The position numbers and the translations under genes are program-made. Shown in pieces: positions 4,188-14,379 of a DNA stretch of 64,000 nt. Under the pieces are notes generated by a model that made no database searches, was not told the DNA's origin, and saw only the letters and a list, made by a program, of their open reading frames with translations. Source of the DNA: a phage. Position 1 is the stretch's first letter; every line of letters begins with the position of its first letter. The stretch is from NCBI GenBank assembly GCA_027262695.1, contig GCA_027262695.1_4722.1; one strand, given 5' to 3'.

Positions 4188-6479
4188 TTAAGCATCCTCG
4201 GTAGGTAATGGTTTCACAATCAAACGATTGAGCGGATTCGATAGGCGCATACTGATAGGCTTATACGCAGCATGATTCGTTTCGCTCAATACAGCGGATC
4301 GGAAGCGACCTTCAACACGTTTATAGATTGGGTTTATCCAAAGACCCTGAAGACCCGGTTGACGGAAACGTTGTTCGATAGGTTTAATCGGTTTCACGGT
4401 CAAACCACGTACCGCTTCTGACGGTATACGTTCGCTGATGTCGCGAGGCGCTCGACCTGGGAATGGAGCCAACCAGAGACCATCCAGCGGGTTCTTACGG
4501 AAACGCAACGAGATAGGATCGCTGATAACCTGCGCCCAGTATTGCGTGCTGAACCGTACCGTCTGGGTATTCTCGTAACCGCTGCAATCGCACCAGGTGG
4601 GTTTCGGCGGGGCTTCTAAGCTCTCAACCGCGGATTCACGCCAGTTCGTCATTGGATTGTTATCATGGACGAATTTGATAACTTCCGTAGCCTGGTTATC
4701 CGTATCGTGAACGTTTGCTTGTGCCCAGTCCTCCCACAGTTCTTCACTGCCGCTTACCAAACTTGAACCGAGTCGAACGGCAATTTTGTTCAGTGGTTTG
4801 ATCGGATCACTGTTGATTGTCTGGATAAAATGGATGGTGTAACTGCTCAGTGTCTTAAGCAGCTGTAGCATCCCGTATTGAATATCCTTAAGACTGGTAA
4901 CGTCTTCCAAGTCTTGACCGGTGGCCTTCGTGAAGATATCGAGAGCCAGAATCCCTGCTTCTTCTTGACTGATTGCGTCAAGTTCCCAATCCATCGCTAA
5001 GAACCATTCCTTGTAAAGCTGTCCAATACCGAAATCAACCCCAACGTCCATGTAGAAGTTTTCAACGATCGCTTCAGCCATACCTCGAGCCTGGTAATGC
5101 TCCTGGAGCTGATACATGAACTGATGACGACGCCAACCCTGGTAAATTTCGGTAACGATGTTAAGAAATTCCTCAGTACTGACGATAGGACGTAATGTCA
5201 CCTGTTTATCTAAACACCACCAGATCAGTTTGTCAGGAATGATAACCGGATCGGTAATGCTACGAAGATGCTCGAATGTCGGTAACGTTAAAACGCGGAC
5301 GTGGTTAGCATGGATCTTAGGCACTTCAATCAGCGTCATACCCATCGAATAGTTCAGCAAATACAAGAATAGCTTGTAGGCATCTTTCATCGACATGGTC
5401 ATGGTATCACCCGTCACCGGGTTGGTGGTGGTTAACCGTGACTGATACATGCCGATGGAACTCAGATGGATCCATTCGTTGAGCAAGAAATCGTATTTCG
5501 GGTATAACTCACTGTCGGTAAGATCTTCCGCTTCACTTTCCAATACCTTGGTTGTTAAGGTATTATTGTCATGCATCGACATCTTCTCTATTGTGCGGTT
5601 AAGCTCGGTATAATACTCCGCTTCGTTATCCCGCGCTAGAGGGAACTGTTGTTGCATTACGGTGGTGACCTTACGACGTACCGTCCCGTTACCAACGATC
5701 TCTTGAAGGTTAAGCGGTTTACGTTCCATGTAAACAGTGGGTTTTAACGTCTGAGGTATTTCGGAAGCGTCTTGTTTGATCGAAAACGCACCGATTGGAA
5801 TGCCACGATCGGTTAATACCTTTTGAATGAGCTTATCGTAGTTTTCCGTTCTACCCATGTTCCTTTCGACGTAAGCGATGTTACGATAGAACCAGAGCAT
5901 TTGGGATTCTGTCATGTATCGCTTGAATCGATCAAGACCTTGATGGCTTGCCAGATAACTCCAGATATGGAAGCTATGGGCATAATGGGTATGACAGTTT
6001 TCCCAACGAATACCTTTTATCATCTCAGGTATTTGTGTGAATAGAATAGCATATAACGCAGGCCAATGAAGCATATCGACGCTTTCATATGCCGGATGTT
6101 CCCAGCGTCTGAAGTAGTCGTCGATTTCTTGCTGTAATCGTGGAATAAGGTTGGCTTCGCGTGATTCAACCTCACGGGTATCGTACCAGAGAATCTCGTG
6201 ATTGCGTGCAGCAATGGCTTTCTCGATATCGATGGGGTTAAGGATACCCAAGATCAACATACGTTGTTCCGGGTACCGTGCAATTAGACGATTGAAATAA
6301 TCTCCGCCGTACGCGTATTCCCTTGCGGTCATGCGGTGCCGTAGCATGTTTTCCTTGGTGAACTCGATCTCTTCGAGCGTATCCAGGGAATTGACGGTCA
6401 TCATTGTCTGACAAGGATGATACTCGCCAGCGAGATTCATGTAGTATAACCACGTGCGTGGGTCGTCCCCGACGGCCAT
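4188..6479 (-). CDS. large hypothetical protein (possible virion protein) with C-terminal short repeats
   Basis: The track ORF 4188-6668 begins with TTG and overlaps the + gene start at 6627; the first ATG at 6479 is the more plausible start; C-terminus carries repeated P-x-x-G-L-W-(L/I)-x-P motifs. Confidence 0.55.
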   Translation of the reverse strand: MAVGDDPRTWLYYMNLAGEYHPCQTMMTVNSLDTLEEIEFTKENMLRHRMTAREYAYGGDYFNRLIARYPEQRMLILGILNPIDIEKAIAARNHEILWYDTREVESREANLIPRLQQEIDDYFRRWEHPAYESVDMLHWPALYAILFTQIPEMIKGIRWENCHTHYAHSFHIWSYLASHQGLDRFKRYMTESQMLWFYRNIAYVERNMGRTENYDKLIQKVLTDRGIPIGAFSIKQDASEIPQTLKPTVYMERKPLNLQEIVGNGTVRRKVTTVMQQQFPLARDNEAEYYTELNRTIEKMSMHDNNTLTTKVLESEAEDLTDSELYPKYDFLLNEWIHLSSIGMYQSRLTTTNPVTGDTMTMSMKDAYKLFLYLLNYSMGMTLIEVPKIHANHVRVLTLPTFEHLRSITDPVIIPDKLIWWCLDKQVTLRPIVSTEEFLNIVTEIYQGWRRHQFMYQLQEHYQARGMAEAIVENFYMDVGVDFGIGQLYKEWFLAMDWELDAISQEEAGILALDIFTKATGQDLEDVTSLKDIQYGMLQLLKTLSSYTIHFIQTINSDPIKPLNKIAVRLGSSLVSGSEELWEDWAQANVHDTDNQATEVIKFVHDNNPMTNWRESAVESLEAPPKPTWCDCSGYENTQTVRFSTQYWAQVISDPISLRFRKNPLDGLWLAPFPGRAPRDISERIPSEAVRGLTVKPIKPIEQRFRQPGLQGLWINPIYKRVEGRFRSAVLSETNHAAYKPISMRLSNPLNRLIVKPLPTEDA

Positions 6480-6626
6480 CTGGTAGACTTCGGAAACCTT
6501 GAGGTTTAACCGTTCTGCCGTGATGTCGCTTTTAATAATCAGGGTGTCCGTTAGACGCTGCACGCTTTCCGAATAAAGCTGATAGTCAGTGTTGGACACG
6601 ATCGGTCCTCCAAGGAGCCAGTGTAA
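6480..6626. promoter_or_regulatory. divergent intergenic region between the 4188-6479(-) and 6627-9545(+) genes
   Basis: 147 bp non-coding gap between divergently oriented genes; aaggag SD 8 nt before the ATG at 6627; no promoter consensus could be assigned. Confidence 0.3.
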
Positions 6627-9545
6627 ATGAACGATATAAATAAAGGGCGCGTCGCCCTCGAACGTCAAATGAGCAATAATGACGTTGCGAAGGCACTCAT
6701 GAACAAATTTGTCGCTCCTGCTCCGCAGTCACGTCTTTATAACACACGTGAAGCGGAAGGAGCGAGCGGTCGTTTCGGGTTAGTTGTTCCCGACCAGATG
6801 ACGATGAACACGGTGACGCGTGCGACCGCAACAAACGTCGAGGATAATAAAAACATCCTCGAGTTGTTCCCTGAACTTAAACGCGTGATGCAGATCTATG
6901 TTGCCGCGTTGACGAACCCTAACGATCTTAAGACGGTCGAGATGTTCATCGACAGCGAAGATTTCCCCGGCAGAGTCGCAGAAATCGTTCAGCCGATGAT
7001 CGATACCATCGACACGCATTTTAAGAATATCTATAAAATAAAGACGCTTATCCCTCGTATCATCGAAGATGTCTTCTTTATCAAGGGCAGCTATAACTTC
7101 GTTGTTCTGCCTGAAAGCACGCTCGATCGTGCTATTAACGGCAACGGCCAACTGAAACTCGAAGAATACGGATTTAAAAACAATCATTTCGCCAGCTGGG
7201 GGCTGCTGGGGAATGACAGCCGTATACGCAGTCAACATCAGTTACCGACAACGGTTTCGATGGAAGATTATTTTTCAGGCGTTAACGAAACCATCCCGTA
7301 CGATCCGGTTGTCCGTATCGATAGCATCAAGTTTACCAACACGATGCTCCGTGATAAAGACGGTAAATTCATTGAAGCGAAGGTCGATATTCCGGATATG
7401 GTTACGGTTGTTGATAACCCAGACATCCTTCGCATGCCGATTTTACACCAACGTCGTGCGTCAACAGCCGTGCAACGTGCATTACGTGCAAACACCTTAG
7501 GCGGTAACGGCCTGGTGACGTTATCAGGCGATCCGACGCAAACCGCGAATCGACGTGAGCTGACACAAGAGCAAGTTAATGAGATCTGGAATAAACTAAA
7601 CATCCAACGTCATACCAAGGTATCGCCTGTGTACGCACTAGCAACCCCGGATACCCTTGACCGTCAAAGTGTCGGTCATCCTGGTGTGATGCACGTACCA
7701 CCTGAGTCATTAGAACCGGTTCATGCGCCTGGCGATCCAGAGAACCATATCGGTTATCTCGTCCAGCTGGATGAATTCGGTTACCCAGTACGTTTGGTTG
7801 AAGATGCTGCGTATTACAAACAGCTGGAAGGTCGACTGTCGAAGATCACGGCGGATATTGCCGGTACATCAAGCAACGGAATGGCGAGTGAGATGATCGG
7901 GGCAGCGAAGAACATGGTTCAAGGTACGTCGTGTAACCAAGTCGATATGTCAGCGTTTGTCTCGTCGTACGAATCACTGATGCAACGTTATATCGTTGAA
8001 CGTATCGTTAACGGTTACCTCGGCAGTGCGGTAGAAATCGGTGCAACGTCGTCGTTCTATCTGTCGATGCTTGCCCGCAGTCTTGCTCACAAGCAAACCC
8101 GTGTTTTGTTTATTCCTCGTGAGATGGTGACATACATCGCCTACGAATACAACAAATACGGGATTGGACGTTCCTTGCTTGAAAGTACGAAGATGATCTC
8201 TTCGCAACGCGCGATGCTCATGGTTCAGGAACTGATGGCGAAAATCAAAAGTTCGTTGAACTATACGACGCTGAGCGTGATGCTCGAAGACACCGATAGA
8301 AACCCGGTTGATACCGTTGAGCAGGCATTGCACAGTTTTGCTCGTGTTTATCAATCTGGTTTCCCGTTGGGTGAAACCAACCCAATGGATATCATCAATG
8401 CATACGAACGAAGCTCGATTCGATTGAAGGTTGAAGGGAACAACCCACGCTTCCCGAAACTGAACACCGACGTTAGCGTTGAACAACGTAACTACCAATC
8501 CCCGGATGATGAGCTGATGGATCGTTACCGTCGTGATCATTTCATGGGTCTGGGTGTTTCTCCAGAGATCGTTGATACGTCCTATCAATCTGAATTCGCG
8601 GCGTCGGTGATTACGGCTAACGCGATGCAAGAGAAACAGTTCACGGTTTGTCGTGAGGTCGTCACGAATGGCTTAACTGATCACATCAAGAAGTATACGG
8701 CTTACAGTCCTGTGCTTCTGACGTCGTTACGCAATACCGTTCGCGCGAATATGTCAAAGCTCTCTCAAGCGCAGCTGCAACAGCTCTTTGGTAGCGACTT
8801 CGAAAACGGTGTTATTCGTAACGTGAACGCGTATCAGGAGATTGATGATCGATCGGTGACAATGGATCTGGATTACACCAAACCGGAAGTCCAGGAAGTG
8901 ATTGCCGACGCTTATGTCTCCATGTTCTTAAACAGCTTGCAGGTACGTTTACCGGATAGCAACGCGCGTCGCCTTGAAGATCAGGTACGTGAATATAATC
9001 AGTACAAGGAAGCGATTACAGCACAACTTGATGATTATTTAACACCGGATTATGTCATGGGTCTGGGTGGGGTCGATGAAACAACCCTGCAGATGATTCG
9101 AGCGTGCATCATTGGTACGGCGATGAGGACATGGGCGAAAGAAAACAACTTCAATCAGGAGCTGGCTGATCTCTTTAGTCTCGACGATAAGAAGAATGCC
9201 GTCCAGGATTGGAAACGTGCATCCATGGAGCATATTGAAATCATGGGTAAATGCATGGGTGATTTCGCACTCTATATCCAAAACCTGACGAAGCAAATCG
9301 AAGAGAAGATGGGCGACCAAGCACAAGACGGTAGCGTTTCATCTGACGGCTCATGGTCATCGGATTCCGGTTCGGATAGCGGTTCTTCCGATGATTTCGG
9401 TGGTGGTGATGACTTTGGTGGCGACGACGATTTCGGAATGGAAGAAACCGAAGAATCCACCGAGGAAACCACTACGGAAGAAACAACCGATGAAACTGGT
9501 GATAATGCCGCATCAGAAGACGATACCGCAGGTGATATTGTCTAA
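6627..9545 (+). CDS. large hypothetical protein with acidic Ser/Asp/Gly-rich disordered C-terminal tail
   Basis: 972 aa ORF with good SD; C-terminus SSDGSWSSDSGSDSGSSDDFGGGDDFGGDDDFG followed by a Glu/Thr-rich tail. Confidence 0.65.
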   Translation: MNDINKGRVALERQMSNNDVAKALMNKFVAPAPQSRLYNTREAEGASGRFGLVVPDQMTMNTVTRATATNVEDNKNILELFPELKRVMQIYVAALTNPNDLKTVEMFIDSEDFPGRVAEIVQPMIDTIDTHFKNIYKIKTLIPRIIEDVFFIKGSYNFVVLPESTLDRAINGNGQLKLEEYGFKNNHFASWGLLGNDSRIRSQHQLPTTVSMEDYFSGVNETIPYDPVVRIDSIKFTNTMLRDKDGKFIEAKVDIPDMVTVVDNPDILRMPILHQRRASTAVQRALRANTLGGNGLVTLSGDPTQTANRRELTQEQVNEIWNKLNIQRHTKVSPVYALATPDTLDRQSVGHPGVMHVPPESLEPVHAPGDPENHIGYLVQLDEFGYPVRLVEDAAYYKQLEGRLSKITADIAGTSSNGMASEMIGAAKNMVQGTSCNQVDMSAFVSSYESLMQRYIVERIVNGYLGSAVEIGATSSFYLSMLARSLAHKQTRVLFIPREMVTYIAYEYNKYGIGRSLLESTKMISSQRAMLMVQELMAKIKSSLNYTTLSVMLEDTDRNPVDTVEQALHSFARVYQSGFPLGETNPMDIINAYERSSIRLKVEGNNPRFPKLNTDVSVEQRNYQSPDDELMDRYRRDHFMGLGVSPEIVDTSYQSEFAASVITANAMQEKQFTVCREVVTNGLTDHIKKYTAYSPVLLTSLRNTVRANMSKLSQAQLQQLFGSDFENGVIRNVNAYQEIDDRSVTMDLDYTKPEVQEVIADAYVSMFLNSLQVRLPDSNARRLEDQVREYNQYKEAITAQLDDYLTPDYVMGLGGVDETTLQMIRACIIGTAMRTWAKENNFNQELADLFSLDDKKNAVQDWKRASMEHIEIMGKCMGDFALYIQNLTKQIEEKMGDQAQDGSVSSDGSWSSDSGSDSGSSDDFGGGDDFGGDDDFGMEETEESTEETTTEETTDETGDNAASEDDTAGDIV

Positions 9546-9578
9546 CCGTTCGTAAAAAAAAAAAATAACACATAGTTA

Positions 9579-9613
9579 ACCTTCTCCCCAACCCGGAAGG
9601 GAAGGGGAGAAGG
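9579..9613. terminator. conserved GC-rich hairpin (family copy 2) with upstream A13 tract
   Basis: ccttctcccc-aaccc-ggaa-ggg-gaa-ggggagaagg; A-run 9552-9565 gives a U-tract after the hairpin on the minus-strand transcript; lies between convergent genes. Confidence 0.65.
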
Positions 9614-9630
9614 GCTATGCGCTATTTAAC

Positions 9631-9906
9631 TTATCTCGAGTTTAACCACGATTCAATTGTGGTGAGGTTGCTTCGCAATACGCGCCAACTAGGGTGTGGT
9701 GGGATCACAGCACCTTTGTCGATTACGGTTAGCTGAGCCTGGTACTTCTGTTTCATACGGGCTACCGTAGCGCTTACCGAAAGGAAAAGCTGGTAACGTT
9801 CGTACACCGTCAGTTCATCTTCCCGTCGAACTGCTCCTGTTGCTAACGTAATTTCGCGTAAGTCCTTTGCGTCCATCGGGACAGTAATGAGTTTATAATG
9901 ACTCAT
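9631..9906 (-). CDS. small hypothetical protein
   Basis: 91 aa ORF with ATG start and aaggaaa SD. Confidence 0.5.
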   Translation of the reverse strand: MSHYKLITVPMDAKDLREITLATGAVRREDELTVYERYQLFLSVSATVARMKQKYQAQLTVIDKGAVIPPHPSWRVLRSNLTTIESWLNSR

Positions 9907-9926
9907 AGGGGTTTCCTTATCAACCA

Positions 9927-9948
9927 GGGTATTGCGTTAACAATACCC
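9927..9948 (-). terminator. hairpin downstream of the 863 aa gene
   Basis: gggtattg-cgttaa-caataccc perfect 8 bp stem, a few nt 3' of the stop at 9957 on the minus strand. Confidence 0.4.
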
Positions 9949-9956
9949 ATCGTCAA

Positions 9957-12548
9957 TTACTGTTCGTCGCGTTCCAACAGGTACTCGGAAGCCGTAACAC
10001 CGTTTACAGTACGGATGGCTTTCAGACGTGTATCATCGTTCAGAATCACGGTAACAGACTGCAGACCTTTTACCTTGGTTTCGAAGGTTTTGAATACCTG
10101 GTCTAACATACGTGCGATGCTTGGGTTGGTGGCAGCTGATGCGTGGGTATACCCACTCTGATTAAGTTTCAGAATCTTCGCGTTGGTTGGTACACGAACG
10201 ATAACATGCGGACGCATAGCGAACACGCTGTGGTTGAACCAGTACGCATCCGGGCTGTCTTCATCGGTCACGAGGTCTGGATGGGTCTGCATATCTTCAG
10301 CTGCAGCATCCGCCAAACGACGTTCGATTTCGTCAGCATCCAGAGAACCATCTTTCTCCAGCTCGGCACGATACTCATCCATGATTGCTGCACGACGCTC
10401 TTGATTTGCGACCATCTTATCATGAGCCGCATTCAGGTAGTCGTTCATGCTGTAAAGCTCTGCCATGGAAAGACGGATGTTCCACTGACCACCACCGTCA
10501 CGATTGCAGTAGAGGCATTTCAACATATTGCCCCAGGTGTGATAGCAACGGGTGAACTCGTCTTCGATGAACTTCTGATCCATTTTAAGTTCGTTGATCA
10601 GCCAGCTATACAGCTCACCGACATCATCTACGAAGCTTGCAATGGTGGTTTCAGAGAAGTTCTTAGGTACAACACGCTTGATCCATTTGTTGATGTCTTT
10701 GGTCATGCTGTCGTTCAGGAAATGCCAGATACGCAGAGGGATAACCTCTCTGTGTTGTTGCATGACCTGACGATAGGCTGACACACCTTCAATATGACCT
10801 TTATCAATAGACAGGGCATCCAGGAATTCCTGGATAGCATCAAGCTGTTTATCGGTGTAGGTTCCCAGGTAGGAATTGACTGTGGTCAGGAACGCCAAAG
10901 CATCGTTCTGGTTGACGTCGGTATTGGTCTGCTGGATGATCGCAACCGTCGCTTTGGTTTCAGCGTCTTCGATGCTGGATGCCGGAACCATGTCAGTGAC
11001 AGTGAACAGTTTCATCTCACGCTGTTCGCCAACAACAATCGGTTCACGTCTAACCGGTTTGTTCAGGCTAACACGCACAACTTCTGCTTGCGCGATACGA
11101 TCCCATTCTGCCATTTCCAGCTCCGCCATACGACGTGCGGTTGGATCTGTTTCAAGTTGAATGTATTCCATTTCTTCCACCGTAAGTGAGGTAATATCAA
11201 CAATGGTTTCATGAAGAATTCCATTTTCGTCGATGCGAGCACGACGAGCGAATTGCCTGAAGTCATACGCGGTTGGCCAACGGCTATCAGGTGCGTAGTC
11301 TTTGGCTTTCAGACGCATTTGCATGAATTCTTCATGGTGAACAACACGACCGTATTGCTTCGCATCTTCGGTCGCATCAAGAGGGTCAACCGTTTTGGTT
11401 ACCGTTGCAGGACGTACGCTACGTACCGGCTCAGGTTTTACCTTCACGGTTTCAGGTTGAGTAGGCGCTTTCTGCTCAGCCTTAACATGCCATTTCGGTT
11501 CTTCGTACTGCTCAGCGAATTGCTCAGCTACCGCAAAGATATCGTTGATACCGCCGATATCTCCATCCGGATGGGTTGAGTAAATACGCGTTTGTGGTGC
11601 TTCCCGACGTGTTGCTGCCGGAGCAGGTTTATCGTCAACTGGGTCATCATCACCAACATCGTACAAACGGTTGAACGCACACTCCTTCGAATCCATATAC
11701 GAAGGTGCTTGCTGCTGAACAACCGTTGGTCGAGGTTGTGTGCCGTATCCTGGCATTGTCGGAGCCATACCACGCATAACCGCTGGATTAGGTTGGTACT
11801 GCGGCTGAGGATAAGCTCCACCGTACGTGTTATACACAGGTTGTTGAGGTTGACCGTATCCGGCGTTGACCATCGCGTTTGCTTGCGGTCCGCGATAGGT
11901 CATTCCCAACTGCGTTACCTGCGCTTTTAACGCACGTGTCTTCTGCGCGATTTGATTCAGAGTCCCACCTTGATTCAGTTGTGTATACTTATTCGCTGCT
12001 TCCGGGTTAATGCGCGTTAATTCCTTTGCACGATAATACTCAGGATATTGATTGGCCTCAAAGAGCCACTGTACAAGATGCATAAGTATCGTTGTACGTA
12101 CCGCGGTGTCGATAATCTGATCGACTGAAGCATTCTGAGGCGCTGGGTTGATGTAAGAGAATACGTTCCAGCAGCAGTCTTCAACAAGTGACTCCATCGC
12201 CTCGTTGTTATTGGCGTAACGTGCCACGAACTGTGTTTGAATATCGTCTTGCTGGGCATGCTCTTTCAGGATAACAAAGATAGCCTGACGGATTTTGACG
12301 ATATTTCCTTCGTTGGTGATGAACTGGTAGTTCTGCTGATATGCTGGATTAGGTTGGTATTGCGGTGGTTGTTGGTAACCGCCCCCGTATTGTGGATAAG
12401 CCGGTTGCTGGGGTTGGTACGGAGGTTGTTGATATTGCGGTTGCTGGTACTGTTGTTGACGCACCTGGTCAGCTGCAAATCGAACCGTGCTTGCGTACGG
12501 GTTCTCGCTATAGCCCATTTGTTGGTAAATGTTGTTACCGTTATACAT
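9957..12548 (-). CDS. hypothetical protein with Gln/Pro/Tyr-rich low-complexity (prion-like) regions
   Basis: 863 aa ORF; N-terminal QQYQQPQYQQPPYQPQQPAYPQYGGGYQQPPQYQPNPAYQQNYQ and internal GYGQPQQPVYNTYGGAYPQPQYQPNPA tracts; the DNA shows matching degenerate repeats near 12340-12480 and 11700-11900. Confidence 0.65.
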   Translation of the reverse strand: MYNGNNIYQQMGYSENPYASTVRFAADQVRQQQYQQPQYQQPPYQPQQPAYPQYGGGYQQPPQYQPNPAYQQNYQFITNEGNIVKIRQAIFVILKEHAQQDDIQTQFVARYANNNEAMESLVEDCCWNVFSYINPAPQNASVDQIIDTAVRTTILMHLVQWLFEANQYPEYYRAKELTRINPEAANKYTQLNQGGTLNQIAQKTRALKAQVTQLGMTYRGPQANAMVNAGYGQPQQPVYNTYGGAYPQPQYQPNPAVMRGMAPTMPGYGTQPRPTVVQQQAPSYMDSKECAFNRLYDVGDDDPVDDKPAPAATRREAPQTRIYSTHPDGDIGGINDIFAVAEQFAEQYEEPKWHVKAEQKAPTQPETVKVKPEPVRSVRPATVTKTVDPLDATEDAKQYGRVVHHEEFMQMRLKAKDYAPDSRWPTAYDFRQFARRARIDENGILHETIVDITSLTVEEMEYIQLETDPTARRMAELEMAEWDRIAQAEVVRVSLNKPVRREPIVVGEQREMKLFTVTDMVPASSIEDAETKATVAIIQQTNTDVNQNDALAFLTTVNSYLGTYTDKQLDAIQEFLDALSIDKGHIEGVSAYRQVMQQHREVIPLRIWHFLNDSMTKDINKWIKRVVPKNFSETTIASFVDDVGELYSWLINELKMDQKFIEDEFTRCYHTWGNMLKCLYCNRDGGGQWNIRLSMAELYSMNDYLNAAHDKMVANQERRAAIMDEYRAELEKDGSLDADEIERRLADAAAEDMQTHPDLVTDEDSPDAYWFNHSVFAMRPHVIVRVPTNAKILKLNQSGYTHASAATNPSIARMLDQVFKTFETKVKGLQSVTVILNDDTRLKAIRTVNGVTASEYLLERDEQ

Positions 12549-12582
12549 CTTCTTACAATCCTTTTATTTATTCGATTAGGTG

Positions 12583-14379
12583 TCAATCGATTATGTCACG
12601 ATCGTTAATTTCTACAATTTCTTCATCGAATCGACCGACGTCTTTCTTCAAGCCTGCGTTTGTTGCTGCAACGTCATTTGCGATTTGTGGGGTAACGATT
12701 AACCGACCACGATCGTCAATCGGTGCGTACATACTGAACTTCTGGCGTCCGGTTGGTTCGGAGTGCGGAAGATTCAGATAGCTCGCGCAGAACGGGATGG
12801 AACCGCTCACCAAACGACTCTCGTCAGCCAATGCGGCACCGCCCGCATTTTGACTCTGGAGAACAACATGTGTACTTACTTTGAACAGCATGCAGTCACC
12901 AGGTGATTGAATCGAGGTTGCCACTTTCTCGCGTTTATCACGATTGCTCTGGATGTTGAGAATCGCTTCTGTTGCAACTTGATTGCGTAACGCTTTTTGT
13001 ACATCGCGATTGGTCATCTCTTTCCGGTTGTTCTGTCGTTTACCACGTTCAGTGGTTTTAAGATGGAACCCCAGTTTAAAGATGCTCTTACGCACATCCT
13101 CCATGACGTATTCCAACACCATCAGTTCCTTACCGAACATCGTCGTGGTGTCGACACGACTCATTTCGATAGTGACGTTATCAATCAAATACGCCATGAA
13201 TTCGTAGAAGTCGTCGCACGGAATATTTTCCTGTTTGAACTTCTTCTGTTGAATTTCGTCAACGTAAAGATCGAGGCTGTCGATGTGGTGGTTTACATCA
13301 CGCAACAAACGCGCATCCGCGTTGTTGTTATTAAAGATAATCAAACCGAGTAGCGTACGCCAGTGGTCTGGCGCATTCGCGAACTCTTCAACCGGATAGT
13401 CTTCTGGAAAACGATCGTAATAACGGTCGATGAGATAGAGGAACGCACCGACAAGACCGAGCACAATACGTTCCGTGCCGCCACGTCTTACCGCGATTTG
13501 AATATCAGGATGTTTATAACGTACCGCGCTAACGCTACGACTCTTACCGCTTTTGCTAATACTAAAGCCTTTAGGAATAACGCCCATGGTGCGATAGATT
13601 ACCCATTGGTCGCGCGGAAAATCACGTTCAGCGAGATTCCGTCCGGTTATTGCTTCGACGCCTGCAAAACGCCGGAAACATTCACCCACGCCATATTTCG
13701 CAAAGAGATAATGGCCCAACGTGGTTACGCTGGTGTGGTTGATGTTGTCCCCGTTCACCTTGCTTTGTTTGGTAAGGTGATAGATTTGCGACCAGGGCAA
13801 TGACAAGTAATGTCGATAATCATTACCGGTTGGTGTATCATTGCTCAGGAACTGATACGGCGTACGCTTAACGGTGATTTTGTCACGCGGAAGCATGATG
13901 AACGCCATGTCTTTCGTGTAACTGATTACCGGGTCAGCAAGCACCGCACTGAGAATGAAGTTCGCACCACGTAGACGCATCTTGCCACCCTGACCTACCG
14001 CAGGCAATAGGAGAGGATGCCGGATGATGCAGTAATCCTTGCCGGGTTCACGACGGTCACCTGCTTCCATCGCGCCATACCAGCGGAATTCCAGCATCAC
14101 CATGAACACATCGGAAGGCGCAAGGTCGAACGTCAGCTTACCGCTATCCTTCCCTTTGGTTTTCTTTCCTCCGCTTAAGTAGTGAAACTGTTCGCGGGCC
14201 ATACAACGACGTAGGCCATGATACACCAGATCCTTAGGTAAACTATCTTTGCTGTTCCGCCAAAGACGATCGACGTAGGACTCAACATCTTGCATCTTAT
14301 CGACAACGATGTTGCGTGCTATCTTCTCGTTCATCTTCGGTGCAAGCTCAGCGACAGCTTTGCAGAATCTAGGATCCAT
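12583..14379 (-). CDS. hypothetical protein
   Basis: about 598 aa; the track start is GTG at 14382 and the adjacent ATG at 14379 is preferred; preceded by tgtaaggag SD-like sequence; no recognisable catalytic motif. Confidence 0.6.
   Translation of the reverse strand: MDPRFCKAVAELAPKMNEKIARNIVVDKMQDVESYVDRLWRNSKDSLPKDLVYHGLRRCMAREQFHYLSGGKKTKGKDSGKLTFDLAPSDVFMVMLEFRWYGAMEAGDRREPGKDYCIIRHPLLLPAVGQGGKMRLRGANFILSAVLADPVISYTKDMAFIMLPRDKITVKRTPYQFLSNDTPTGNDYRHYLSLPWSQIYHLTKQSKVNGDNINHTSVTTLGHYLFAKYGVGECFRRFAGVEAITGRNLAERDFPRDQWVIYRTMGVIPKGFSISKSGKSRSVSAVRYKHPDIQIAVRRGGTERIVLGLVGAFLYLIDRYYDRFPEDYPVEEFANAPDHWRTLLGLIIFNNNNADARLLRDVNHHIDSLDLYVDEIQQKKFKQENIPCDDFYEFMAYLIDNVTIEMSRVDTTTMFGKELMVLEYVMEDVRKSIFKLGFHLKTTERGKRQNNRKEMTNRDVQKALRNQVATEAILNIQSNRDKREKVATSIQSPGDCMLFKVSTHVVLQSQNAGGAALADESRLVSGSIPFCASYLNLPHSEPTGRQKFSMYAPIDDRGRLIVTPQIANDVAATNAGLKKDVGRFDEEIVEINDRDIID

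Follow-up and report, generated by a model that had tools for sequence, protein, structure and literature searches.

Introduction

JADA, short for Jumbo phage Avs5 Defense Activator, is an essential, abundant and early-expressed protein of the nucleus-forming Chimalliviridae phages, and phiKZ_124, the gp124 of phage phiKZ, is an orthologue (PMC12931631; Mol Cell 2026; PDB 9RP3). Its gene was described as always lying directly downstream of a gene for a non-virion RNA polymerase (nvRNAP) subunit, in the same direction (PMC12931631). Here, a gene for a protein of 863 amino acids (aa) with Gln/Pro/Tyr-rich low-complexity tracts was analysed. It is located on the phage contig GCA_027262695.1_4722.1 (NCBI GenBank assembly GCA_027262695.1), a stretch of 64,000 nucleotides that is referred to as the window. 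Gene position and profile comparisons suggest that the protein is the JADA of a clade of phages related to Escherichia phage Goslar.

In JADA, an N-terminal domain (residues 1-170) is joined by a long disordered linker to a C-terminal domain (residues 270-721) that has a novel fold and assembles into a rigid homodimer (PMC12931631). The protein forms foci or accumulates at early-infection (EPI) vesicles, and its C-terminal domain activates the bacterial Avs5 defence, a STAND-Sir2 NADase (PMC12931631). Activation was shown with Pa36 JADA and three Avs5 clades of Pseudomonas aeruginosa. Essentiality, early expression and EPI recruitment were established for Pa36 and phiKZ JADA only. A role in early transcription was suggested for JADA (PMC12931631). 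Antisense knock-down of PHIKZ124 strongly altered phage transcription at 30 min (PMC12571901). The JADA paper is silent on low complexity and condensates (PMC12931631). Co-purification of phiKZ gp124 with host DnaX or FtsZ is given second-hand (Van den Bossche 2014, cited in PMC11849849) and was not used as evidence.

Affiliation of the 863-aa protein

The window was assigned to a Goslar-like Chimalliviridae phage. The gene for the 863-aa protein shared 81% nucleotide identity and 79-80% amino acid identity with gene 38 of Goslar, and two metagenomic copies were 99% and 90% identical to the window protein. The gene directly upstream encoded an nvRNAP subunit with 98.8% identity to Goslar gp039 and 24% identity to phiKZ gp123 over 93% of the length. 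Goslar gp039 is named nvRNAP in the table of a mass spectrometry (MS) study of Goslar virions (bioRxiv 10.64898/2026.04.21.720040). Co-transcription of the two genes is likely, because just 34 nt separate them. The gene order in the window was phiKZ-type major capsid protein (MCP), gp122-like protein, gp123-like nvRNAP subunit, 863-aa protein and portal.

The nvRNAP subunit was used as anchor for a comparison of gene positions. Matches in tblastn were obtained in 235 jumbo-phage records, 25 of which, Goslar included, were inspected. A 'hypothetical protein' of 687-981 aa followed the nvRNAP subunit directly and on the same strand in 24 of these 25 records, with at most one ORF (open reading frame) of 59 aa in between. 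The exception was Photobacterium phage PDCC-1, which had five small unrelated ORFs of 89-245 aa in that slot (6211-8587), and phmmer detected no similarity between these ORFs and any JADA orthologue. The slot in PDCC-1 breaks the synteny that has been called 'invariant' for JADA.

Profile comparisons connected the window protein to gp124, which itself matched PDB entry 9rp3_A, 'Gp316/JADA', across all 721 residues. With hhalign, the Goslar-clade profile aligned to a phiKZ-clade profile (phiKZ, 201phi2-1, LucasX, RSL2 and RP12) with a probability of 98.5% and an E-value of 1.7e-15 over 253 columns, covering aa 403-680 and residues 343-622 of gp124. A MAFFT alignment of 13 C-terminal domains showed the same register and ran on to the C-terminus, placing aa 800 on gp124 residue 657 and aa 850 on residue 711. 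Weaker hhalign matches were located in the same region for the YC1 clade (64%, aa 504-684), PCH45 (74%, aa 565-655) and Eowyn (57%, aa 596-654). Pairwise BLAST against gp124 and Eowyn gp146 gave just a match of 50-60 aa around aa 601-666. The motif T-x3-N...I-x2-F-x2-D-x3-L aligned across all clades, and its residue N620 was the sole invariant column in alignments of 19 and 27 sequences. In a search of 177,635 PDB sequences with the Goslar-clade hidden Markov model (HMM), 9rp3_A ranked first, but with an E-value of 1.3. The domain order derived from AlphaFold and composition paralleled that of JADA, with a helical N-terminal domain, a disordered linker and a C-terminal domain. The N-terminal domains comprised about 130-170 aa in both proteins, that of the window protein being predicted as helical. 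Prichard et al. 2023 list HOV27_gp038/Goslar_00038 in the PHIKZ124 column of their core-genome orthologue table, between the columns of gp123 and gp129. At a probability of roughly 85%, the 863-aa protein is the Goslar-clade JADA and an orthologue of phiKZ gp124. As such, it adds a divergent member to a known protein family and is not a new kind of protein.

Several results weigh against this affiliation. The profiles of the N-terminal domains of the Goslar clade and the phiKZ group aligned with a probability of only 0.7% in hhalign, so similarity was undetected in this part. About 180 C-terminal residues (aa 681-863) were outside the hhalign match, and at least aa 700-750 had no phiKZ counterpart in the MAFFT alignment, which suggests an insertion specific to this clade. 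The AlphaFold model of aa 384-863, calculated from few sequences, was poor, with a predicted local distance difference test (pLDDT) value of 43 and a predicted template modelling (pTM) score of 0.23, and Foldseek of this poor model against the PDB returned nothing at E <= 0.001. Neither did phmmer with the 863-aa protein find any match in the PDB. An exhaustive HMMER search of 1.84 billion representative proteins recovered the Goslar clade and one further protein, P0005, alone. These results leave room for an alternative, in which an unrelated ORFan of the Goslar clade replaced JADA at this position and the profile match is spurious. The missing significance at the pairwise and HMM level and the undetectable similarity of the N-terminal domains fit such a replacement, and PDCC-1 illustrates that replacements in this slot occur. 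However, a spurious match is difficult to reconcile with 253 collinear columns at E 1.7e-15, with weaker matches of 57-74% to YC1, Eowyn and PCH45 in the same part of the protein and with a motif aligned in all clades. Size, domain order and neighbours were also all alike, and the published orthologue table concurs. A replacement by an ORFan is therefore considered very improbable and affiliation with JADA is retained.

Database searches with the window protein gave few relatives. Pfam yielded merely sub-threshold noise (Phage_int_SAM_1, 14 bits), and PHROGs contained no fitting family, with a weak match to phrog_38209 only. Word-indexed protein searches were swamped by low-complexity words and returned four close relatives only, and the same type of search with the 19-sequence alignment of C-terminal domains returned one YC1-like protein. 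Scans of viral contigs added few loci. P0005 comprised 774 aa and was 36% identical to the window protein over aa 112-861. It had no long YQQP tail, and a Q/P/G/A-rich internal region was retained. Its locus consisted of a PhiKZ-type MCP, two ORFs, a 593-aa protein, P0005, a small ORF and a 965-aa ORF on the reverse strand, and the 593-aa protein was 69% identical to the window nvRNAP subunit. An early lead to 'gp38' in the literature concerned phiKZ gp38, an unrelated ribosome-associated protein and not Goslar gp038, and was discarded. PHROGs splits JADA into at least three families of 'unknown function', phrog_15010 (phiKZ-type), phrog_11639 (Ea35-70-type) and phrog_13213 (YC1-type). The Goslar clade, P0005 and FBKp24 were in none of these three families.

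Table 1. Coordinates of the gene for the 863-aa protein, its predicted domains and motifs, and neighbouring features in the window.
Feature	Residues	Position (nt)	Strand	Remarks
JADA-type coding sequence	863 aa + stop	9957-12548	-	ATG start, complete; orthologue of Goslar gp038 / HOV27_gp038
N-terminal low-complexity tail	aa 1-83	12300-12548	-	Q27 Y16 P13 N10 G7; 2 K/R, 3 D/E
Core YQQP/PQYQ tract within tail	aa 31-76		-	
N-terminal folded domain, predicted all-helical	~aa 84-207	11928-12299	-	AlphaFold
Internal Gln/Pro/Gly/Tyr tract	aa 208-288	11685-11927	-	Q16 P15 G11 A10 Y10; opens the inter-domain linker
Linker, second part	aa 289-395	11364-11684	-	Mixed, acidic, Pro-rich: 22 D/E, 13 K/R
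Short motif LYDVGDDDP	aa 295-303	11640-11666	-	In second part of linker
C-terminal domain	aa 396-863	9960-11363	-	JADA-type by profile comparison
JADA-aligned part	aa 403-680	10509-11342	-	Residues 343-622 of phiKZ gp124/JADA
Most conserved family motif	T616-x3-N620 ... I636-x2-F639-x2-D642-x3-L646	10599-10703	-	
Spacer	34 nt	12549-12582	-	AAAGGA, ribosome-binding-like site 10 nt before ATG
Upstream nvRNAP subunit	599 aa	12583-14382	-	phrog_2943 'polymerase', E 4e-120; homologue of phiKZ gp123 / Goslar gp039
Portal	972 aa	6627-9545	+	phrog_3004; homologue of Goslar gp36

Low-complexity tracts of the window protein

Tracts were defined by 25-aa stretches in which neither aliphatic/aromatic-hydrophobic nor charged residues exceeded 12%. 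The N-terminal tail and the first part of the linker were of this kind (Table 1). Residues 31-85 consisted of 34.5% Q, 18% P and 16% Y, and the richest stretch of 30 aa held 26 Q/P/Y residues, a fraction of 0.87. The protein was thereby a clear outlier among the 51 ORFs of the window, the runner-up reaching 0.43. Relative to the background of 12.2% Q+P+Y in these ORFs, the binomial tail probability was 3e-20 per 30-aa stretch. When the protein was shuffled 2000 times, the maximum number of Q/P/Y residues per 30 aa averaged 12.2 and never exceeded 17. Tandem Repeats Finder (TRF) reported no DNA tandem repeat in 9900-12650, and both tracts were also present in four close homologues from independent assemblies, phage Goslar among them. 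Because of the shuffling and background statistics, the absence of tandem repeats and the occurrence in independent assemblies, the tracts are neither due to chance nor an artefact.

The aromatic residues of the tail were spaced by 2-10 residues, mostly by 4-7. The maximum of Q+N was exactly 30 in 80 aa, starting from residue 3, which is borderline against a threshold of 30. The Michelitsch-Weissman criterion for Q/N-rich prion-like domains reportedly requires at least 30 Q+N per 80 residues. A Pro content of 13-18% speaks against amyloid on prion-propensity scales. The composition and the two tracts reported in the original prediction were thus reproduced by residue counts and the background comparison, and its term 'prion-like' is fair as a description of an almost uncharged composition with regular tyrosines and 30 Q+N in 80 aa. 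Of its wording 'phase-separating or amyloid-prone', the amyloid part is disfavoured by Pro. A repeat or assembly artefact, which it had named as a possible source of the tracts, is excluded by the TRF result and by the independent assemblies.

The full-length AlphaFold model had low confidence (pLDDT 39). Most of aa 1-67 and aa 218-392 was modelled as coil with pLDDT 21-35 (about 22 in the linker). Helices with pLDDT of about 55-60 were located in aa 68-217, and mixed structure started from aa 394. Both AlphaFold models, of low confidence, contained mainly helices and several strands, which is a weak check of the description of the remaining protein as helical.

Selection within the Goslar clade

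The ratio of nonsynonymous to synonymous divergence (dN/dS) was calculated for the window and Goslar at a synonymous divergence (dS) of about 1. Values for this pair were 0.12 in the tail, 0.16 in the N-terminal domain, 0.10 in the Q/P/G/Y tract of the linker, 0.13 in the rest of the linker and 0.085 in the C-terminal domain. Within the clade, values ranged over 0.12-0.14 in the tail, 0.15-0.16 in the N-terminal domain and 0.085-0.09 in the C-terminal domain. Tracts of the Goslar clade are under purifying selection and as constrained as the folded parts. The linker tract (aa 208-288) was 81-83% identical to Goslar. The tail tract of Goslar was 13 residues shorter, with two gaps and a similar composition; the residues present only in the window were QQPPYQPQQ, GGG and one further residue. 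A neutral expansion, which the original prediction had considered should homologues uniformly lack the tracts, is therefore refuted by the dN/dS of about 0.1: homologues do not uniformly lack them, and they evolve under purifying selection (dN/dS 0.10-0.14 at dS of about 1).

The copy with 90% identity (IMGVR_UViG_3300011560_000001, 8001-10589) was mosaic, its breakpoint lying near codon 290. From codon 1 up to about this point it was nearly identical to the window, with dS of 0.02-0.06. The remainder had dS of 0.5-0.9 to the window and was Goslar-like in the protein alignment. This shift in dS places the breakpoint of recombination where the Q/P/Y linker tract ends.

Disordered regions across the JADA family

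In all 27 full-length positional orthologues, the C-terminal domain was preceded by an aliphatic-poor stretch of 92-332 aa. By a stricter criterion, a polar-uncharged tract preceded this domain in 22 of the 27, or in 23 of 28 with the truncated orthologue L025 counted. An additional low-complexity N-terminal tail was present in 11 of the 27. In the pooled disordered regions, Q (11.3 vs 4.8%), G, P, Y (5.0 vs 3.2%) and R were over-represented, and L, I, V, F and K under-represented. The most extreme Tyr content (9-10%, compared with 3% in the remaining protein) and Q/P/Y density were those of the Goslar clade. The Gln/Pro/Tyr tracts are hence the version of the disordered regions of the JADA family in the Goslar lineage. 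The statement that such a composition is unusual for a phage protein was misleading, as linkers that are long, disordered and of low complexity are the norm within JADA.

Two linker chemistries were distinguished. Polar uncharged linkers were found in Goslar, phiKZ, Eowyn, Ea35-70, Proteus 10, 201phi2-1, YC1, PS2 and others, and Arg-rich linkers with RG/RD/RS/RGY repeats in FBKp24, KpLz-2_45, Haymo, RSL2 and PCH45. The linker of LucasX consisted of GGR/YGG. Loci with Arg-rich and with Gln-rich linkers shared the same GC content. A motif similar to Y-D-[VED]-[PG] was located just after the tract in the window protein, P0005, phiKZ gp124, 201phi2-1, the orthologue L023, phiHQ and PCH45, with the versions LYDVGDDDP in the window and AAYDVPGS (aa ~247-252) in gp124. 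It is a candidate short linear motif common to the Goslar and phiKZ clades.

Neighbouring portal gene

Goslar gp36, the homologue of the portal encoded in the window, was identified as portal in the Goslar cryo-electron microscopy (cryo-EM) study. The last ~70 codons of the window portal gene encoded an acidic Ser/Asp/Gly/Glu/Thr low-complexity tail (…SSDGSWSSDSGSDSGSSDDFGGGDDFGGDDDFGMEETEESTEETTTEETTDETGD…).

Discussion

By orthology with phiKZ-type JADA, the window protein would be essential, act early at the EPI vesicle, have a link to nvRNAP-dependent transcription and be sensed by Avs5. Its tracts are best viewed as selected, intrinsically disordered and uncharged segments, which would not be degenerate junk. 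With the C-terminal dimer fixed in one place, the linker could give the N-terminal domain access to partners in another. Regularly spaced tyrosines, on four tracts per dimer, may provide weak multivalent self- or hetero-association, and such association might concentrate JADA at the EPI vesicle or at the site of early transcription. The role that we infer and favour is a selected disordered tether with weak Tyr multivalency. This tether lies on a spectrum that extends from a pure spacer to a true condensate scaffold. Amyloid formation is unlikely because of the high Pro content, and the role as an assembly factor suggested in the original prediction found no support. That interpretation was partly right on composition and missed the identity as JADA.

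Against tether and multivalency stands the observation that linker chemistry is not conserved, with some orthologues being Arg/Asp/Gly-rich. Furthermore, Q/N content drops with increasing GC content of the locus (Spearman -0.63, p 5e-4). A generic constraint for a flexible, soluble spacer would explain both the varied chemistry and the GC trend. The tracts of a JADA orthologue may accordingly act as passive entropic spacers without self-association, in which length and solubility are needed and the residues result from mutational bias and a host-like linker composition. In addition to the GC trend and the wide differences between clades (Q/P/Y, G/P/Q/M, N/Q and R/D/G), the 13-residue difference between window and Goslar in the first tract agrees with this, as does the E. 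coli SSB disordered linker of host-type Q/P/G sequence as the closest match in the PDB outside JADA. However, conservation of the Goslar-clade tracts at the level of folded domains (dN/dS 0.10-0.14) exceeds the need of a pure spacer. Tyr is enriched about threefold in the disordered regions of this clade (10% vs 3%) and regularly spaced, and the Arg-rich type exists at the GC content of the Gln-rich type. A passive spacer remains a serious contender at somewhat less than even odds. At the other end, JADA tracts might give rise to a condensate-like hub, located at the EPI vesicle or the nascent nucleus, in which nvRNAP, transcripts or ribosomes are concentrated; this corresponds to the 'condensate-forming scaffold' of the original prediction. 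The prion-like composition, with 30 Q+N in 80 aa, near-zero charge and Tyr mostly every 4-7 residues, would suit a hub, as would four tracts per particle if the protein is a dimer like its homologue. RG/RD/RS-rich sequence, which forms the linkers of other clades, is the other classic condensate and RNA-binding chemistry. Foci at EPI vesicles were seen with JADA of the phiKZ type, and transcription was perturbed upon its depletion (PMC12931631, PMC12571901). These foci are, however, also explicable by a folded domain that binds a vesicle component, high Pro content disfavours ordered assemblies, and in the JADA study, mass photometry and cryo-EM showed the protein as a soluble dimer, condensates not being reported (PMC12931631). 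A condensate hub is thus unlikely, and the tether is preferred.

A further possibility concerns the timing of action. The Goslar-clade protein could be packaged at roughly the copy number of the portal, injected with the DNA and act at the EPI vesicle before gene expression. In purified Goslar virions, gp038 was detected by liquid chromatography-tandem MS with 26 peptides and 28% coverage, corresponding to 17-39 copies (about 25), compared with 11-26 copies estimated for the portal in the same analysis (bioRxiv 10.64898/2026.04.21.720040, Table S4). Non-virion controls were far lower, with about 0.14 for nvRNAP gp039, 0.6 for gp175 and 0.1 for DNA polymerase, and the gene sits among head genes between MCP and portal. 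However, chimallin (about 126), PhuZ (about 171) and ChmC (about 78), which are not virion proteins, co-purified at levels above gp038, so that abundant proteins of the cell interior were evidently carried along in this preparation. Moreover, gp038 is missing from the Goslar cryo-EM model of 28 proteins, and phiKZ gp124 has no structural annotation and was described as early-expressed. Packaging of gp038 in the Goslar virion is possible, and delivery with the DNA for action before gene expression is quite doubtful. We hold it to be just as doubtful that the disordered regions, prion-like Q/P/Y in the Goslar clade and many others and RG/RD-rich in further clades, are the functional core of the protein, with four tracts per dimer forming a condensate-like hub on the EPI vesicle through which nvRNAP-dependent transcription is coupled to mRNA handling or translation, and with a few dozen copies perhaps delivered by the virion in Goslar-type phages.

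Nucleus-forming jumbo phages depend on JADA, and it is this protein that Avs5 immunity senses. Goslar gp038 is still annotated as hypothetical, and the JADA family is out of reach of sequence searches that start from it. Its placement extends JADA to an E. coli model, and the E. coli/Goslar system offers genetics, cryo-electron tomography and virion proteomics. The JADA paper calls the linker only 'disordered'; new here are a family-wide low-complexity region, its two chemistries and its selection in the Goslar clade. Family-wide, selected low-complexity regions provide a testable handle on the mechanism of JADA.

Comparison with known systems

Prion-like domains of the FUS type in eukaryotic RNA-binding proteins are uncharged and rich in Gln, Gly, Pro and Asn, with evenly spaced tyrosines. 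The tracts of the window protein differ from them by much more Pro, little Ser and a shorter length of about 80 aa each, and the resemblance is one of composition and not of homology. Q/P/G sequence of the GYGQPQQP type is shared by the window tract and the linker of E. coli SSB. FtsK and ZipA have other enterobacterial Q/P-rich linkers. The best PDB matches outside JADA, obtained with the Goslar-clade profile at aa 214-244 (nt ~11817-11909), were SSB entries 1eqq_A (residues 131-162) and 7f2n_A with non-significant E-values of 5-7. The window protein has neither an OB fold nor an acidic tip of the SSB type, and the acidic LYDVGDDDP follows its tract. A link to SSB via the Q/P/G linker and the acidic motif was rejected as compositional on the basis of these E-values.

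The closest characterised protein is phiKZ gp124/JADA. Both proteins are encoded directly after a gp123-type nvRNAP subunit on the same strand in a Chimalliviridae background. They share the domain order, a C-terminal domain homologous at a profile probability of 98.5% and the column in the core-genome orthologue table. Differences are a sequence identity of 17% only, over the aligned C-terminal core, and a length that is 142 residues greater in the window protein. The Tyr/Gln/Pro N-terminal tail of 83 aa has no equivalent in phiKZ. The linker is longer in the window protein (about 190 aa) than in phiKZ (about 100 aa) and contains far more Tyr and Pro, with a maximum Q/P/Y fraction per 30 aa of 0.87 vs 0.43. 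Goslar gp038 (HOV27_gp038, YP_009820723.1, QBO63831.1), annotated as 'hypothetical protein', is an orthologue with the same neighbours and both tracts. It is separated from the window gene by a synonymous divergence of about 1, and part of the gene has recombined among members of the clade.

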